From the IMG/VR virus record IMGVR_UViG_2690316318_000015: a DNA stretch of 8,410 nt; one strand, written 5' to 3'. Below, piece by piece: positions 1-8,410 of the stretch. The number at the start of each line of letters is the position of its first letter. The first letter of the stretch is position 1. This DNA comes from a virus (taxonomy: Duplodnaviria > Heunggongvirae > Uroviricota > Caudoviricetes). The position numbers and the translations under genes were made by a program. The notes beneath the pieces are model-generated. The model was given only the letters and a program-made list of their open reading frames with translations, was not told where the DNA came from and searched no databases.

Positions 1-458
1 GTGTCCGCCCCATAAACATTCATCGAAAACATTTGAACAATATGACCACTTGGTAACTGAAACCAGTTTTTAAAAAAAAAAAATGCAGACAGGGAATATA
101 AACCTTCACGGGAATCATAATCAGTCGTCATATAGTTAGACGTATTATCAGAAACAGTTTCTGTCGGTCTGGTAACCAGACGATAAGAGCCAGTGGTTGG
201 TGATCTGACCAGACCAAAACTTTCAACCAGAGTGGCTTTTTGAAAGCTTAATAATCCCCGACCACTGTCAGCTCCACGCCCGTCATCCCAGCCACGAATA
301 AACTCACCGCGTAAATCAGGTAATTTATTTGTTGGATAAGCCTTTGCCAGTTCCGGGTATTCTTCAGCAGAAAATGCCGCACCGTTGCATTTCAGCCAGC
401 CTGTTGGCGGTGTGACTGAAGGCCATGGAACAGGCACACCAACAGGTAATGCAGAGCC
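1..458 (-). CDS. Tail-fibre variable C-terminal segment (Sv1), silent copy next to pin copy 1; 3' end runs off the window start
   Basis: Minus-strand translation from the crossover site reads ...[66 protein letters not shown]...FGLVRSPTTGSYRLV...KNWFQLPSGHIVQMFSMNVYGADT, resembling remembered Mu S / P1 S / e14 Stf variable parts. A fortuitous ATG in the pin-upstream region (about 510-512) is in frame. No stop within the window. Confidence 0.55.
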
Positions 459-484
459 TTCTCCCAAACCAACGTTTATGAAAA
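459..484. other. pix-type recombination crossover site, copy 1 (TTCTCCCAAACCAACGTTTATGAAAA), 50 bp upstream of pin copy 1
   Basis: 26-bp imperfect dyad (half-sites TTCTCCCAAACC and TTTTCATAAACG around a central AA) in the position and form expected for Hin/Gin/Cin/Pin sites. The left half continues into a tail-fibre variable segment, the right half into the pin leader. Confidence 0.7.
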
Positions 485-533
485 TGCAGAAATAACGGCT
501 AACTGGCATCATCTCTGGTTTTTATTCAGAGGG

Positions 534-1094
534 ATGATCATGCTTATTGGCTATGTACGCGTGTCAACAAATGACCAGAACACCGATTTGCAACGTAATG
601 CACTGAACTGCGCGGGATGTGAGCGGATTTTTGAGGATAAAATCAGTGGAACTAAGTCCGACAGACCAGGACTGAAAAAACTGCTCAGGACATTATTGGC
701 AGGTGACACGCTGGTGGTCTGGAAACTGGACCGACTGGGGCGCAGTATGCGGCATCTTGTCGTGCTGGTGGAGGAGTTGCGCGAACGAGGCATTAACTTT
801 CGTAGTCTGACGGATTCAATTGATACCAGTACCCCAATGGGGCGCTTTTTTTTTCATGTGATGGGTGCCCTGGCTGAAATGGAGCGTGAACTGATTGTTG
901 AACGAACAAAAGCTGGACTGGAAGCTGCTCGCGCACAGGGACGAATTGGTGGACGTCGTCCCAAACTTACACCAGAACAATGGGAACAGGCCGGACGATT
1001 AATTGCATCAGGAGTTCCTCGCCAGAAGGTGGCGATCATCTATGATGTTGGTGTGTCAACTTTGTATAAGATGTTTCCTGCAGGGGATAAATAA
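534..1094 (+). CDS. pin: Serine-recombinase DNA invertase Pin (Hin/Gin/Cin/Pin family), copy 1
   Basis: 186-aa ORF; MLIGYVRVSTNDQ (catalytic Ser region), LVVWKLDRLGRS, GINFRSLTDSIDTSTPMGRFFFHVMGALAEMERELIVERT and a C-terminal helix-turn-helix are family hallmarks. GAGGG lies 5-9 nt before the second ATG (540), so the true start may be there (184 aa). Confidence 0.92.
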   Translation: MIMLIGYVRVSTNDQNTDLQRNALNCAGCERIFEDKISGTKSDRPGLKKLLRTLLAGDTLVVWKLDRLGRSMRHLVVLVEELRERGINFRSLTDSIDTSTPMGRFFFHVMGALAEMERELIVERTKAGLEAARAQGRIGGRRPKLTPEQWEQAGRLIASGVPRQKVAIIYDVGVSTLYKMFPAGDK

Positions 1095-1200
1095 AGTTAA
1101 AGTCACTTTGTGTACAAAAGAAAATAAAACAACAGCAACTTGTTGCAATTTTATCAATAAAAGTAGTATTGTCGTAAAAAATTGATTAAAGATTAATATT

Positions 1201-1576
1201 ATGCATGTTTTTGATAATAATGGAATTGAACTGAAAGCTGAGTGTTTGATAGGTGAAGAGGATGGTGTTTATGGTCTAATCCTTGAGTCGTGGGGGCCGG
1301 GTGACAGAAACAAAGATTACAATATCGCTCTTGATTATATCATTGAACGGTTGGTTGATTCTGGTGTATCCCAAGTCGTAGTATATCTGGCGTCATCATC
1401 AGTCAGAAAACATATGCATTCTTTGGATGAAAGAAAAATCCATCCTGGTGAATATTTTACTTTGATTGGTAATAGCCCCCGCGATATACGCTTGAAGATG
1501 TGTGGTTATCAGGCTTATTTTAGTCGTACGGGGAGAAAGGAAATTCCTTCCGGCAATAGAACGAAACGAATATTGA
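1201..1576 (+). pseudogene. mcrA: mcrA 5' fragment (first ~125 codons), then the ORF reads through antisense tail-fibre sequence to a stop at 1623
   Basis: First 125 residues identical to the full-length 277-aa ORF at 3649..4482; identity ends abruptly at 1576/1577. The remaining 15 codons are antisense of the tail-fibre segment. Confidence 0.85.
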
Positions 1577-2133
1577 CTGACCAGACCAAAACTTTCAACC
1601 AGAGTGGCTTTTTGAAAGCTTAATAATCCCCGACCACTGTCAGCTCCACGCCCGTCATCCCAGCCACGAATAAACTCACCGCGTAAATCAGGTAATTTAT
1701 TTGTTGGATAAGCCTTTGCCAGTTCCGGGTATTCTTCAGCAGAAAATGCCGCACCGTTGCATTTCAGCCAGCCTGTTGGCGGTGTGACTGAAGGCCATGG
1801 AACAGGCACACCAACAGGTAATGCAGAGCCTTCTCCCAAACCAAGGTTTTCGAGAGCCGTTTTCACCGTGCCATCCGATTTGATATCGCCAAACGGATTC
1901 TTGCGGCTTAACAGCAGCGCACGAAGCGCGGTAAGCAGCTGGTCATGCCGCCCCTTCTCCAGGCTGGCACCGGATGCCTCCACCACGCTGCAGAGTTCTT
2001 CCTGCAACATGTCAAAGTAGTCATCATCCAGATCGGTGGCAGGTGTGCCGGTCTGGGGGTTACCACGGGTAAAACCGTTCTTACCCGCGCCGAACTTATC
2101 CTTCTGCGCGGTTTTCGTGTCTATACGATGCAT
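1399..2133 (-). CDS. Chimeric tail-fibre ORF: constant N-terminal part (2133..1857) joined across a pix site to the first ~84 codons of variable segment Sv1 (1856..1577), then antisense-mcrA read-through (1576..1399)
   Basis: N-terminus [46 protein letters not shown]... is the start I associate with e14 StfP-type tail fibres. The crossover site encodes ...ALENLGLGE, followed by [51 protein letters not shown]. Homology to the Sv1 copy at 205..458 stops at 1577. Confidence 0.6.
1831..1856. other. pix-type crossover site, copy 3 (TTCTCCCAAACCAAGGTTTTCGAGAG), inside the tail-fibre reading frame
   Basis: Shares the TTCTCCCAAACCAA half with sites 1 and 2 in the same orientation; the other half continues into the tail-fibre constant part. 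Confidence 0.65.
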
Positions 2134-2136
2134 GGA

Positions 2137-2320
2137 TTACTCCGGATATTTAAAAATTACGTAGGTATGCGAAGGGCAGAGTTTGTTAAGCACACACTCG
2201 ACAACGGTGTCGCCCCAGATACGCAGTGCGGAATCACAGGGATCGCCACATGTCATCCAGGTGGTGTTGGTGGCGGCTGGCATGTTGACCTGCCAGTAAT
2301 ACCGCCATTCCGGCGCATTC
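2137..2320 (-). other. Possible 3' end of the phage tail gene upstream of the tail-fibre gene; very uncertain
   Basis: Minus-strand frame ...[61 protein letters not shown] ends one codon before the tail-fibre ATG. No recognisable motif; called from position only. Confidence 0.25.
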
Positions 2321-2569
2321 ACATCTTTCTGATTCTGCCTGTTGAATAAGTTCTTCATGTGATGGTTGAGGTATTTCAGCCCATGTGGGAAAACCATTTA
2401 CCCCTGCAACTCGGATTTTCCCTTGTGGCGGTTCCGCCATATATTTTACAGAAATGTTATCAGGAATATCTAATGCATCAGCGGGCCATGTTCCATTTAC
2501 TTCATAAGTATTTTTTAAATTAACAGCATAAAATGCATTTTCCGAAGGGGAATAAATATATTGATTCAT
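2234..2569 (-). pseudogene. Tail-fibre assembly chaperone (Tfa) gene, N-terminal ~82 codons only (2569..2324); the rest of the ORF is unrelated sequence
   Basis: AGGAAG Shine-Dalgarno then ATG directly after the Sv2 stop. Residues 60-81 (...[23 protein letters not shown]) resemble the conserved mid-region of P2 G / Mu U / lambda Tfa; the next 29 codons do not look Tfa-like. Confidence 0.5.
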
Positions 2570-2570
2570 A

Positions 2571-2960
2571 TTATCTTCCTATTGCGATAATCATAGTTCC
2601 ATACAAACCATTTCCGGTTGATACTTTTAAGGTTACTGATGTCCTTGTTGTCGTGTACCCCATAAGTTTAAAGGTCGGAGCAGCCGTTAATGTGCCATCA
2701 GACCATAAGGCACTAACAGCAAGTGCACCTGAAGGAAATGCAATAGGGAAATTACCAGTAGTTCCGTTAGTGTCCGCCCCATAAACATTCATCGAAAACA
2801 TTTGAACAATATGACCACTTGGTAACTGAAACCAGTTTTTGCCAGATGGAAATGCAGACATATCTGGTATCTGATTTTCTCCTGTTCCCACATTCCGTTT
2901 TGCCGCTTCTCCCAAACCAACGTTTATGAAAATGCAGAAATAACGGCTAACTGGCATCAT
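2571..2960 (-). CDS. Tail-fibre variable C-terminal segment Sv2, silent copy next to pin copy 2 (variable part 2571..2906; leader 2933..2960 comes from the pin-upstream region)
   Basis: Translation MMPVSRYFCIFINVGLGE-AAKRNVGTGENQIPDMSAFPSGKNWFQLPSGHIVQMFSMNVYGADTNGTTGNFPIAFPSGALAVSALWSDGTLTAAPTFKLMGYTTTRTSVTLKVSTGNGLYGTMIIAIGR; the C-terminus is typical of Mu/P1/e14 tail-fibre tips. Shares about 30 residues with the Sv1 copy at 1..91. Confidence 0.65.
   Translation of the reverse strand: MMPVSRYFCIFINVGLGEAAKRNVGTGENQIPDMSAFPSGKNWFQLPSGHIVQMFSMNVYGADTNGTTGNFPIAFPSGALAVSALWSDGTLTAAPTFKLMGYTTTRTSVTLKVSTGNGLYGTMIIAIGR
2907..2932. other. pix-type crossover site, copy 2 (TTCTCCCAAACCAACGTTTATGAAAA), 50 bp upstream of pin copy 2
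   Basis: Identical to site 1 and in the same orientation. Confidence 0.7.
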
Positions 2961-2981
2961 CTCTGGTTTTTATTCAGAGGG

Positions 2982-3542
2982 ATGATCATGCTTATTGGCT
3001 ATGTACGCGTGTCAACAAATGACCAGAACACCGATTTGCAACGTAATGCACTGAACTGCGCGGGATGTGAGCGGATTTTTGAGGATAAAATCAGTGGAAC
3101 TAAGTCCGACAGACCAGGACTGAAAAAACTGCTCAGGACATTATTGGCAGGTGACACGCTGGTGGTCTGGAAACTGGACCGACTGGGGCGCAGTATGCGG
3201 CATCTTGTCGTGCTGGTGGAGGAGTTGCGCGAACGAGGCATTAACTTTCGTAGTCTGACGGATTCAATTGATACCAGTACCCCAATGGGGCGCTTTTTTT
3301 TTCATGTGATGGGTGCCCTGGCTGAAATGGAGCGTGAACTGATTGTTGAACGAACAAAAGCTGGACTGGAAGCTGCTCGCGCACAGGGACGAATTGGTGG
3401 ACGTCGTCCCAAACTTACACCAGAACAATGGGAACAGGCCGGACGATTAATTGCATCAGGAGTTCCTCGCCAGAAGGTGGCGATCATCTATGATGTTGGT
3501 GTGTCAACTTTGTATAAGATGTTTCCTGCAGGGGATAAATAA
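2982..3542 (+). CDS. pin: Serine-recombinase DNA invertase Pin, copy 2 (identical protein to copy 1)
   Basis: Same 186-aa translation as 534..1094; sits in the canonical position between a tail-fibre variable segment and mcrA. Confidence 0.92.
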   Translation: MIMLIGYVRVSTNDQNTDLQRNALNCAGCERIFEDKISGTKSDRPGLKKLLRTLLAGDTLVVWKLDRLGRSMRHLVVLVEELRERGINFRSLTDSIDTSTPMGRFFFHVMGALAEMERELIVERTKAGLEAARAQGRIGGRRPKLTPEQWEQAGRLIASGVPRQKVAIIYDVGVSTLYKMFPAGDK

Positions 3543-3648
3543 AGTTAAAGTCACTTTGTGTACAAAAGAAAATAAAACAACAGCAACTTGTTGCAATTTT
3601 ATCAATAAAAGTAGTATTGTCGTAAAAAATTGATTAAAGATTAATATT

Positions 3649-4482
3649 ATGCATGTTTTTGATAATAATGGAATTGAACTGAAAGCTGAGTGTTTGATAG
3701 GTGAAGAGGATGGTGTTTATGGTCTAATCCTTGAGTCGTGGGGGCCGGGTGACAGAAACAAAGATTACAATATCGCTCTTGATTATATCATTGAACGGTT
3801 GGTTGATTCTGGTGTATCCCAAGTCGTAGTATATCTGGCGTCATCATCAGTCAGAAAACATATGCATTCTTTGGATGAAAGAAAAATCCATCCTGGTGAA
3901 TATTTTACTTTGATTGGTAATAGCCCCCGCGATATACGCTTGAAGATGTGTGGTTATCAGGCTTATTTTAGTCGTACGGGGAGAAAGGAAATTCCTTCCG
4001 GCAATAGAACGAAACGAATATTGATAAATGTTCCAGGTATTTATAGTGACAGTTTTTGGGTGTCTATAATACGTGGAGAACTATCAGAGCTTTCTCAGCC
4101 TACAGATGATGAATCGCTTCTGAATATGAGGGTTAGTAAATTAATTAAGAAAACGTTGAGTCAGCCCGAGGGCTCCAGGAAACCAGTTGAGGTAGAAAGA
4201 CTACAAAAAGTTTATGTCCGAGATCCGATGGTAAAAGCTTGGATTTTACAGCAAAGTAAAGGTATATGTGAAAACTGTGGTAAAAATGCTCCGTTTTATT
4301 TAAATGATGGAAGCCCATACTTGGAAGTGCATCATGTAATTCCCCTGTCTTCAGGTGGTGCTGATACAACAGATAACTGTGTTGCCCTTTGTCCGAATTG
4401 TCATAGAGAATTGCACTATAGTAAAAATGCAAAAGAACTAATCGAGATGCTTTACGTTAATATAAACCGATTACAGAAATAA
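3649..4482 (+). CDS. mcrA: McrA, methylcytosine-directed type IV restriction endonuclease (HNH nuclease), full length
   Basis: 277 aa, the length of E. coli K-12 McrA, and the N-terminus matches my recollection of it. C-terminal HNH motif CENCGKNAPFYLNDGSPYLEVHHVIPLSSGGADTTDNCVALCPNCHRELH. AT-rich relative to pin, sits next to pin as in e14. Confidence 0.9.
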   Translation: MHVFDNNGIELKAECLIGEEDGVYGLILESWGPGDRNKDYNIALDYIIERLVDSGVSQVVVYLASSSVRKHMHSLDERKIHPGEYFTLIGNSPRDIRLKMCGYQAYFSRTGRKEIPSGNRTKRILINVPGIYSDSFWVSIIRGELSELSQPTDDESLLNMRVSKLIKKTLSQPEGSRKPVEVERLQKVYVRDPMVKAWILQQSKGICENCGKNAPFYLNDGSPYLEVHHVIPLSSGGADTTDNCVALCPNCHRELHYSKNAKELIEMLYVNINRLQK

Positions 4483-4715: not shown

Positions 4716-4829
4716 ATGCTGCGCCATATGGGTTGGACTGAAGCAGCTGACCTGATTGTTAAAGGTATGGAAGGCGCTAAACTGCTGAAATGTTCAGAGT
4801 TTGGTGATGCGATCATCGAAAATATGTAA
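4716..4829 (+). pseudogene. icd: Displaced 3' end of icd (icdC-like fragment) marking the prophage/chromosome junction
   Basis: Translation [37 protein letters not shown] matches the remembered C-terminus of E. coli Icd. No upstream icd sequence; followed by a hairpin terminator. Confidence 0.75.
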
Positions 4830-6020: not shown

Positions 6021-6919
6021 ATGAAGCGTGAAGAAATCGCTGATCTGATGGCATTCGTCGTCGTTGCAGAGGAGCGTAGCTTCACTCGCGCAGCAGTCCG
6101 CTTGGGCATGGCGCAGTCAGCTTTAAGCCAGATAGTGCGTCGTATAGAAGAACGATTGGGATTGCGGCTCCTGACGCGAACCACGCGTAGCGTTGTGCCA
6201 ACTGAAGCGGGCGAACATCTTTTATCTGTTCTTGGCCCGATGTTGCATGACATAGATTCAGCCCTGTCATCCCTGAGTGAGCTGCAGAATCGCCCATCCG
6301 GGACAATACGTATTACTACAGTAGAACATGCAGCAAAGACGATACTGCTACCAGCCATGCGCACATTCCTGAAATCGCATCCTGAAATTGATATTCAGCT
6401 TACCATTGATTATGGTTTGACCGATGTCGTTTCTGAACGTTTTGATGCAGGTGTCCGTCTGGGAGGGGAGGTGGATAAAGATATGATTGCCATTCGAATC
6501 GGGCCTGATATACCAATGGCTATTGTTGGCTCACCGGATTATTTTTCCCGCCGAAGCGTTCCAACGTCAGTGTCACAATTAATAGACCATCAGGCCATTA
6601 ATTTGTATCTTCCCACATCGGGTACAGCGAATCGCTGGCGATTAATACGTGGTGGACGTGAGGTTCGTGTTCGCATGGAAGGTCAGCTTTTACTGAATAC
6701 GATAGATCTGATCATTGATGCTGCAATTGATGGGCACGGATTAGCGTATCTACCTCATGATCAGGTTGAGCGGGCGATTAAAGAAAAAAACTGATACGTG
6801 TTCTGGATAAATTCACACCAGACTTACCCGGTTATCACCTGTACTATCCACACCGTCGGCATGCTGGCTCGGCATTCTCCTTATTTATAGATAGGCTGAA
6901 GTATAAAGGCGCTGTTTAG
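6021..6919 (+). pseudogene. LysR-family transcriptional regulator, interrupted by a +1 frameshift in an A7 run (6784..6790); intact length would be 299 aa
   Basis: N-terminal HTH (ERSFTRAAVRLGMAQSALSQIVRRIEERLGLRLLTRTTRSVVPTEAG) and co-inducer-domain layout. The ORF stops at 6794, but the +1 frame continues LIRVLDKFTPDLPGYHLYYPHRRHAGSAFSLFIDRLKYKGAV* to 6919, which is a typical LysR C-terminus. Confidence 0.75.
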
Positions 6920-7504
6920 TTTTGCTTGATGATACGTTGATTTCATTTTTCCCTTAACGTGTTCACAGTTCCTTTCGACGTTTTAGTTATTTTTTCTTCT
7001 TCATACAATGGCGGCAATTACTTTCTTTTATTTTTATTATCGTGGATGTTAATACCAGAACTTCTGACCCTACGATGCATGTTTTTTGTATATTATCTGT
7101 ATCAGGCAAAGAGTGGCGCAAATTGTGGATGGTGGGGGAGTATAACCCGGAAGAGTTTACATTTTTGAACGGTATTTTTTGTAATGTAAAGGAAAATCTG
7201 TGTCGGAATGATCGCTATTTGGGTGCAGATGGCAGAAGGAGTGGGGAAATAAATAATAATTCTACGATGATATTATTTGGTTGTATCGGTTAGTGATGAA
7301 CTCAGGTCGCCAGATGCTGCACTATCTCCGGCGTGGATGATGCTTTCAGTCTCAGACTTACTGACATCGCTCAATGGGATTCTTTCGTCCTCAGTGAGCG
7401 CATCGAAACCATAACTAACCAATTGAATAGCCTGCAAGAGTATGTGAGATCACAGTGTTCATATTAGAAAAGTCTTATCATAAGATTTTTTATATGGATG
7501 CATT

Positions 7505-7891
7505 ATGTCTCAATACGCTCGTGCCGCTTTAATTGCTTATAATTTGGTTGCCGATAAATCAATGTCTCCTCGTGAGGCTTGGGACGCCGCTGTTGCTAAG
7601 GTTACAAAAAGCGAATCCTCAAGAAAGAAGGGATGCCCAAGGGCAACGTTTCTCGCCTTGGCGGATTGCGGTTATCTGAAGAATGTAGAACCACAGTATG
7701 GGGAGAAAAAAGGCGGTAAGTTGTACCAAAGGGCGGTTGAAGTTGCGAATCTGATTCTTGATTTACCCGGAATTAGCAAAGCTGAGTTAGTTGATAAAAC
7801 TTGCTATAAAGACGGGCAAGGGTCTTATGACATTGTGCTAACACTCGCTCAGTGCGGATTTCTCCAACGCCCTCAGCAAGATATTAAGTGA
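7505..7891 (+). CDS. Hypothetical protein, 128 aa, no family recognised
   Basis: Clean ORF with even codon usage, followed 8 nt later by a hairpin and T-tract. Two related Cys-containing motifs (FLALADCGYL and LTLAQCGFL) about 65 residues apart suggest an internal duplication. No clear Shine-Dalgarno. Confidence 0.5.
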   Translation: MSQYARAALIAYNLVADKSMSPREAWDAAVAKVTKSESSRKKGCPRATFLALADCGYLKNVEPQYGEKKGGKLYQRAVEVANLILDLPGISKAELVDKTCYKDGQGSYDIVLTLAQCGFLQRPQQDIK

Positions 7892-7930: not shown

Positions 7931-8062
7931 ATCTCACCACCGGATGCACTGACTGGCTTCGTGGCTGTTTTCAACAGTGAGGAGGCATCGTGGCATCTCG
8001 TTGAAGACCCGCGGGGTAAGACTGTCAGTGGCGTGGCTTCAGGTAATGCGCTATCCCTTTAA
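7931..8062 (+). pseudogene. Remnant of a lambda-type tail-fibre assembly gene (tfa), internal ~43 codons only
   Basis: Frame reads [43 protein letters not shown], close to the remembered lambda Tfa mid-region (...[39 protein letters not shown]...). No start codon and the C-terminal half is missing. Confidence 0.65.
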
Positions 8063-8064
8063 AA

Positions 8065-8081
8065 GGGAGGTTATACCTCCC
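8065..8081. terminator. Hairpin GGGAGG-TTATA-CCTCCC containing the acetyltransferase stop codon; possible bidirectional terminator
   Basis: Perfect 6-bp GC-rich stem flanked by AAAA upstream and TTTCTTT downstream on the + strand. Confidence 0.45.
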
Positions 8082-8320
8082 TTTCTTTGCAAACGTTAAC
8101 TTTCTTAGTATAGCAAATCGAATTTGAGGGTATATCCTTATTTACAAATGTAAAAGCACCAATTTTTACATTATCACCTATAGTAATGTTATCTGCGATA
8201 ATACAGGAGTTCGCTCCAATATTTACATTGTCACCAATGCTAATTCTATTAGTATTGTTGTTTTTTAAGCCAATTGTTGTGTTTTGCCTTATATTGAAGT
8301 TTCTACCAATTGTGGCATAT
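8071..8320 (-). pseudogene. Hexapeptide-repeat (left-handed beta-helix) acetyltransferase, 3' fragment of ~83 codons, 5' end removed by the IS insertion
   Basis: Minus-strand translation YATIGRNFNIRQNTTIGLKNNNTNRISIGDNVNIGANSCIIADNITIGDNVKIGAFTFVNKDIPSNSICYTKKVNVCKEREV* has the [LIV]-G-x-x-x-x periodicity and a typical C-terminus. Very AT-rich. No start codon; the frame ends at the IS junction. Confidence 0.65.
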
Positions 8321-8410
8321 TGATCCTACCCATGTAATATGGACACAAGCCTAAGCGAGGTTCTGATTTTCAAATTGTTCCGGACTGAGACCGCCACACC
8401 AACTGTGCCG
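8321..8410 (-). mobile_element. Right end of an IS3-family element (terminal inverted repeat plus the last codons of transposase orfB); the rest lies beyond the window
   Basis: Reverse complement ...CAGTTGGTGTGGCGGTCTCAGTCCGGAACAATTTGAAAATCAGAACCTCGCTTAGGCTTGTGTCCATATTACATGGGTAGGATCA closely matches the remembered right end of IS3 (a few mismatches). Terminal TGATC...; minus-strand frame ends ...SWCGGLSPEQFENQNLA* with stop at 8351..8353. Confidence 0.7.

Follow-up and report, generated by a model that had tools for sequence, protein, structure and literature searches.

Results

Gene content of the window

The DNA analyzed here, termed the window (8410 bp), represents the whole of contig CYCK01000069.1 from Escherichia albertii (assembly GCA_001286085.1). 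The species was assigned by the names given to proteins that are identical or 99% identical to those encoded here. In E. albertii, this region reads in the order icd, an e14-like prophage (present in some strains), a hydrolase gene, a LysR gene, ycgJ, an Rz remnant, a gene for a DUF6979 protein, a remnant of the tail fibre assembly gene tfa, an acetyltransferase gene, nleG, queH, ompT, and ymgF. A first-pass annotation of the window had proposed that the acetyltransferase gene is truncated by an IS3-family insertion next to the tfa remnant. The following features were located at the right end of the window:

7935-8054, plus strand: tfa remnant (phage tail fibre assembly), DNA 84-87% identical to tfa genes of E. 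coli, in convergent orientation to the acetyltransferase gene
8061-8085, no strand assigned: terminator-like hairpin with an 11-bp perfect palindrome, between the convergent tfa remnant and acetyltransferase gene; the acetyltransferase stop codon lies in the loop
8071-8320, minus strand: 3′ fragment of a gene for a 180-aa LbH (hexapeptide) acetyltransferase, comprising the last base of codon 98, codons 99-180, and TAA (8071-8073)
8318-8320, no strand assigned: TAT, left copy of a putative 3-bp target-site duplication; the flank in the window ends ..GGCATAT
8321-8410, minus strand: right end of an IS3-like element, TIR at about 8321-8360, starting with TG at 8321; the contig ends inside the element
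8351-8410, minus strand: 3′ end of the OrfB transposase gene, stop codon TAG at 8351-8353, last 19 codons at 8354-8410

The contig ends 90 bp within the IS, so that the far IS end lies beyond the window; apparently, the assembly stopped here because a short-read assembler could not resolve a multi-copy IS. The translation of the tfa remnant resembles residues ~47-85 of Tfa proteins from phage phiNP and Salmonella. The hairpin at 8061-8085 gave a predicted RNA folding energy of -19.2 kcal/mol (z = -3.2 against shuffled sequences) and was not called by a simple terminator scan. Probably, it terminates transcription from both sides, that of the tfa remnant and that of the convergent acetyltransferase gene. 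A search of the window against Rfam returned no match.

Several other genes of the window were inspected. The gene for the DUF6979 protein (128 aa, phrog_5039; 7505-7891) is undamaged, although flanked by the remnants of Rz (lysis; 7324-7467) and tfa, and is kept in all E. albertii loci examined. The e14-like prophage ends with a gene for a McrA-like HNH endonuclease of 277 aa (3649-4482). Behind this gene, 62 bp (4716-4777) are 94-95% identical to the DNA that comes immediately after the annotated icd gene in prophage-free relatives; such an arrangement is to be expected if the element had integrated at icd. Three direct repeats are contained in the left part of the window (1-4024): positions 458-1576 are 100% identical to 2906-4024 and carry the pin invertase gene and the 5′ part of mcrA, positions 205-477 equal 1577-1849, and positions 1-91 resemble 2770-2860 with an A12 run in place of 12 bases. 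Apparently, the contig runs two times through the invertible segment of the e14-like prophage that encodes tail fibre parts. The segment was doubled either by an assembly artefact or by a genuine duplication; in both cases a truncated mcrA copy (ORF 1201-1623) is left.

The LysR-family regulator (6021-6794) is cut to 257 aa as compared to 299 aa in most relatives, caused by an A-run at 6784-6791 that is shorter by 1 bp (A7 instead of A8). The same truncated LysR protein occurs in other lineages (L011-L015), and the near-identical IS-bearing strains L022 and L081 have A8. These observations point to a slippage-prone tract or to a homopolymer sequencing error.

The fragment and its intact allele

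The minus-strand frame 8071-8322 is open over 83 codons and terminates with the TAA at 8071-8073; the two other frames are rich in stop codons. The translation product (..YATIGRNFNIRQNTTIGLKNNNTNRISIGDNVNIGANSCIIADNITIGDNVKIGAFTFVNKDIPSNSICYTKKVNVCKEREV) alone matched Pfam Hexapep (PF00132) with 36.2 bits (E = 4e-9) and Hexapep_2 (PF14602) with 34.1 bits, both above the Pfam gathering cut-off of 27 bits. These tandem repeats place the product in the hexapeptide-repeat (LbH) acyltransferase superfamily, in agreement with the initial assignment of a hexapeptide acetyltransferase.

A search for the intact gene in related strains, as suggested in the first-pass annotation, revealed a gene of 543 nt encoding 180 aa at the corresponding position of many E. 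albertii genomes. The window was 98.6-99.98% identical to these loci. The fragment is 100% identical to the intact allele at L010:10567-10816, and the 100% identity to the 3′ end of the intact gene extends over window positions 8005-8320. Residues 1-98 of the 180 are absent from the window contig. In a DNA search of 5426 complete E. coli genomes, none covered the acetyltransferase part, so that E. coli was rejected as the source.

No minus-strand ORF of at least 40 aa with a canonical start was detected in the fragment 8071-8320, and an in-frame TAG is located inside the IS two codons upstream of it. Judged from its sequence, the 3′ fragment is a dead pseudogene remnant, because it lacks the promoter-proximal part of the gene and a canonical start, because the in-frame TAG of the IS lies just upstream, and because the lost 5′ part holds the residues that align with the catalytic Asp/His pair of CysE.

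The high AT content which had been pointed out for the gene was evident for the fragment (31% GC) and for the intact gene (32% GC), as compared to 45% for the adjoining genes and 43.5% for the whole window.

The breakpoint and the IS3-like element

The window-wide alignments to the first ten loci all ended at base 8320. The intact allele reads GGCATATCTTG across the site, that is, GGCATAT followed by CTTGTAATAAC; in the window, GGCATAT is followed by TGATCCTACCC. From 8321 onward, the window reads TGATCCTACCCATGTAATATGG.. and pairwise alignment showed that similarity to the IS starts exactly at 8321 with TGATCCTACCC, the upstream flanks being unrelated. The gene thus loses its 5′ portion at the very base at which the IS begins, just as had been proposed.

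The sequence past 8320 had been expected to belong to an IS3-family element. Indeed, 86 of the 90 bases (~96%) matched a 1257-bp IS3-family element of E. coli strain 317, from its terminal TGATCC onward; its transposase gene is labeled by PGAP as 'IS3 family transposase, frameshifted'. Genes annotated as 'IS3 family transposase' in hundreds of E. coli genomes match the 90 bases at ~96% as well. The OrfB end encoded in the window (..RHSWCGGLSPEQFENQNLA*) is identical to the C-terminus of the OrfB protein of the E. coli element. The transposase and acetyltransferase genes share one strand, and the former reads toward the fragment.

At the one end that is visible, TG at 8321 agrees with the 5′-TG...CA-3′ termini of IS3-family TIRs. 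The E. coli element carries TGATC(C/T)TACCCA at both ends, and a manual comparison revealed 28 matches in 45 positions between these ends; owing to mismatches in the repeats, an automatic inverted-repeat search on the E. coli IS remained empty. With its left end, the E. coli element matches canonical IS3. Members of the IS3 family measure about 1.2-1.5 kb, possess orfA and orfB linked by a programmed -1 frameshift with a DDE (rve) transposase in OrfB, and generate target-site duplications of 3-4 bp. For the element in the window, a length of ~1257 bp, an orfA/orfB structure, and the left end are predicted from the 96%-identical E. coli element. Exact scans of all GTDB species representatives detected neither a 31-mer of the IS end nor, among these representatives, the left gene/IS junction.

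The insertion site in other assemblies

The identical junction between gene and IS was present in the Logan assembly of ERR137811, which contains 26 nt of the IS, and in IMG genome 2695420514, which contains 62 nt. Furthermore, more than 20 sister assemblies of E. albertii break their contigs at the insertion site, with both halves of the gene undamaged and 100% identical to the intact allele. Nine left-flank contigs end ..GTGGCA(T), for example ..GGCAT; of the right-flank contigs, 14 start with CTTGTAAT.. and one with ATATCTTGTAAT.., and the right-flank starts were also recorded as CTTG.. or ATATCTTG... Over 5397 positions, a single difference separates the left-flank contig L022 from the window. 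The accession numbers of the partial proteins P0145 (97 aa) and P0147 (81 aa) are only 499-3973 apart, which implies that the same genomes hold both halves. The predicted N-terminal product of 99 aa corresponds to P0141, which is recorded only from a different assembly and ends at a contig edge. The best reading of these sequence comparisons appears to be a simple insertion common to a clade.

Independent insertions at a hot spot were also considered, prompted by contig breaks in strains with an intact and in strains with a frameshifted LysR gene. This reading was rejected, since the strains hardly differ apart from the LysR lesion, which amounts to a slip of 1 bp in an A-run.

Contig L019, a right flank from a sister assembly, begins with ATATCTTGTAAT.. 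(ATAT), and TAT is therefore the probable target-site duplication, as deduced from flanks that come from different assemblies. The exact right boundary is ambiguous, because the terminal ..CA of the IS coincides with a CA of the target. The TG terminus and the probable 3-bp duplication presumably conform to IS3. A simple insertion predicts that the far end of the IS is joined to ..TATCTTGTAATAACAATTCC, that is, to the rest of the gene and nleG; the far-side join would read ..GGGTAAGATCA-TAT-CTTGTAATAACAATTCC. A scan of the IMG/VR viral contigs did not find this predicted right junction, and none of the sequences searched showed a right junction with attached IS bases.

Enzyme class of the intact protein

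The intact protein scored below all curated NCBIfam cut-offs of the related families, namely EpsC (NF041874, 82.4 bits against a cut-off of 150), CysE (TIGR01172, 68.4 against 210.65; PRK11132, 41 against 397), and WcaB (TIGR04016, 52.2 against 194.65; PRK10191, 53.7 against 196), and was therefore not assigned to CysE, WcaB, or EpsC. No match to the SATase_N domain was recorded for the intact product.

In E. coli CysE, the catalytic pair Asp143/His158 is located in the motifs DIHP and DH(A)TG. Asp75 and His90 of the intact protein align with these motifs; among 41 homologues, His90 is invariant and position 75 is occupied by Asp or Glu. Both residues belong to the part which is missing from the fragment. 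AlphaFold predicted with confidence an N-terminal domain of four helices (residues 1-72), and the beta-helix with low confidence. Foldseek returned only CysE structures, with weak similarity (TM about 0.38). The fold evidence is thus regarded as supportive only. As judged from the glycosyltransferase genes that neighbor homologues, it is plausible that the intact enzyme acetylates a sugar or a surface polysaccharide such as the O-antigen.

Phage affiliation

A horizontal, possibly phage-borne origin had been suggested for the gene. The intact protein matched the phage protein family phrog_2154 with E = 4.9e-68 over practically the full length (residues 2-178 on profile positions 5-181 of 185). 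In IMG/VR, 324 relatives were found, and a Tfa homologue was convergent within 300 bp in 33 of the 79 loci kept. Homologues of the acetyltransferase (phrog_2154) typically occupy the ends of prophages and face a tail fibre assembly gene in convergent orientation (L034-L112; L032:1281-2429; L027:5261-7129). The gene sat of Citrobacter phage phiNP was listed as cargo ORF4, serine acetyltransferase, by Magaziner et al. (PMC6456863).

A homologue with 79% identity is encoded in a Salmonella prophage between an upstream phage glycosyltransferase gene (phrog_1962) and a Caudo_TAP gene. Additionally, a chromosomal homologue of C. rodentium (61% identity) lies 3′ of a family-2 glycosyltransferase gene, and an Enterobacter homologue adjoins a gene without assigned function. 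Taken together, the match to phrog_2154, the relationship to phiNP sat, and the placement beside tail fibre assembly genes make a horizontal, phage-borne origin of the acetyltransferase gene well supported at the level of sequence, as the first-pass annotation had supposed.

Other lesions in E. albertii

The acetyltransferase gene is broken in different ways in other E. albertii strains. An A6 run of the gene is longer by 1 bp in L004 and shorter by 1 bp in L014 and L015, and a T8 run has lost 1 bp in L011 and L013. A base change in L008 reduces the product to 55 aa, presumably by a premature stop codon. In the strains with these lesions the gene is located at about 10567-11109 or 12051-12593. 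Truncated products of 63 aa occurred on more than 100 contigs as compared to ~50 contigs for intact forms, among the matches listed. The IS insertion thus represents one of several ways, independent of one another, in which E. albertii is losing a dispensable cargo gene of prophage origin.

Discussion

We conclude with a probability of about 0.88 that an IS3-like element split a phage-derived acetyltransferase gene in a lineage of E. albertii by a simple insertion. Established parts of this reading are the position of the breakpoint, the identity of the IS, the existence of an intact allele, the affiliation of the gene with phages, and the lack of further lesions. The element would have transposed into codon 98/99 of a gene for a prophage-derived hexapeptide-repeat O-acetyltransferase of 180 aa; its target would be a gene adjoining a tail fibre assembly remnant, downstream of an e14-like prophage at icd. 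The insertion would separate the N-terminal helical domain and the first coils of the beta-helix, including Asp75 and His90, from the last 82 codons. In the strain studied here, the 5′ half would still be located beyond the IS, preceded by the TAT duplication.

Instead of being displaced by ~1.26 kb, the 5′ half, perhaps together with nleG and the DNA beyond, might have been lost or relocated when IS copies recombined with one another. The right junction was not seen in this strain, it was absent from the IMG/VR viral contigs, and the look-up of the 99-aa N-terminal product returned no contig from GCA_001286085.1 or ERR137811; a missing protein record is, however, to be expected if the 5′ piece was classified as a pseudogene during annotation. 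Near-identical sister assemblies still contain the 5′ half, undamaged and ending at the same site on another contig, and the accession pairs of P0145 and P0147 put both halves in the same genomes. We therefore regard an IS-mediated deletion or rearrangement as unlikely. It is hardly conceivable at all that the junction is a chimeric join of gene and IS made by the assembler and that the gene truly reads on uninterrupted through GGCATATCTTGTAAT. The suspicious direct repeats and the A12 filler in the left part of the contig do indicate an imperfect assembly near repeats, but the same junction was recovered in the Logan and IMG assemblies with different contig ends, the contigs of more than 20 independent assemblies end at this very position on either side, and the breakpoint matches the true IS terminus to the base.

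The order of events also has to be considered. The gene was independently broken by frameshifts or a premature stop in many other E. albertii strains, 63-aa products are widespread, and the surrounding prophage is degraded, as seen from the Rz and tfa remnants; the IS could thus be a secondary hit in a decaying prophage remnant whose acetyltransferase gene had become a pseudogene before the IS arrived. Yet in the IS-bearing lineage each half shows 100% identity to the intact allele, even in the A8 and T6 runs that are frameshifted elsewhere, which makes such a late arrival of the IS very improbable. With no other lesion in either half, the earlier proposal that the IS insertion was the inactivating event holds for this lineage, and we retain the simple insertion into an intact gene as the preferred reading.

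As an IS-split pseudogene at a contig end, the locus represents ordinary gene decay. For annotation, positions 8071-8320 are to be treated as a pseudogene fragment and the contig end as a collapsed IS3-like repeat. Both IS copies (7-11) and pseudogenes were reported to be scarce in E. albertii (PMC4700944). Since the insertion is clade-wide in a species with these properties, it could serve as a lineage marker.

A more far-reaching view would be that phrog_2154 acetyltransferases are lysogenic-conversion enzymes which O-acetylate the LPS receptor of their own phage, and that the repeated loss in E. albertii reflects selection or on/off switching of a surface modification and not neutral decay. 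This idea was raised by the frequent convergent placement of phrog_2154 genes and tail fibre assembly genes in viral loci, and we consider it speculative and rather doubtful. Phage phiNP adsorbs to glucose of the LPS core (PMC6456863). If true, lysogenic conversion would lead to superinfection exclusion or to an altered surface antigen. The phrog_2154 family, common beside tail fibre genes, is the only part of the present findings worth an experiment.

The components of the locus can be compared with known systems. The IS3 element of E. coli shares its terminal TGATCCTACCCA.. and its OrfB end ..HSWCGGLSPEQFENQNLA* with the element of the window and differs from it by four substitutions in 90 bp. 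The intact acetyltransferase has the left-handed beta-helix and the hexapeptide repeats in common with CysE, WcaB, and EpsC. It resembles CysE in particular by the Asp and His residues that align with the catalytic motifs, and the best PDB matches in sequence and fold are all CysE; in contrast, CysE is a protein of ~273 aa. Furthermore, the genes described here are found in a phage context or, in Salmonella and C. rodentium, with glycosyltransferase genes, and not in a context of cysteine biosynthesis.

The closest counterpart among phages is sat of Citrobacter phage phiNP, the product of which shows 83.8% aa identity to the intact protein of E. albertii, with 99% of the latter aligned. The sat gene is likewise located at the end of the genome (prophage), directly after the tail fibre assembly gene tfap and convergent to it. 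The similarity at the DNA level covers sat only and does not include the neighboring tfa; moreover, phiNP is an active phage with an intact gene, whereas a split gene in a prophage remnant is found here. The IS-disrupted surface-polysaccharide gene wbbL::IS5 of E. coli K-12 provides a parallel for the mode of loss: in both cases, a single IS knocks out a horizontally acquired, AT-rich gene.
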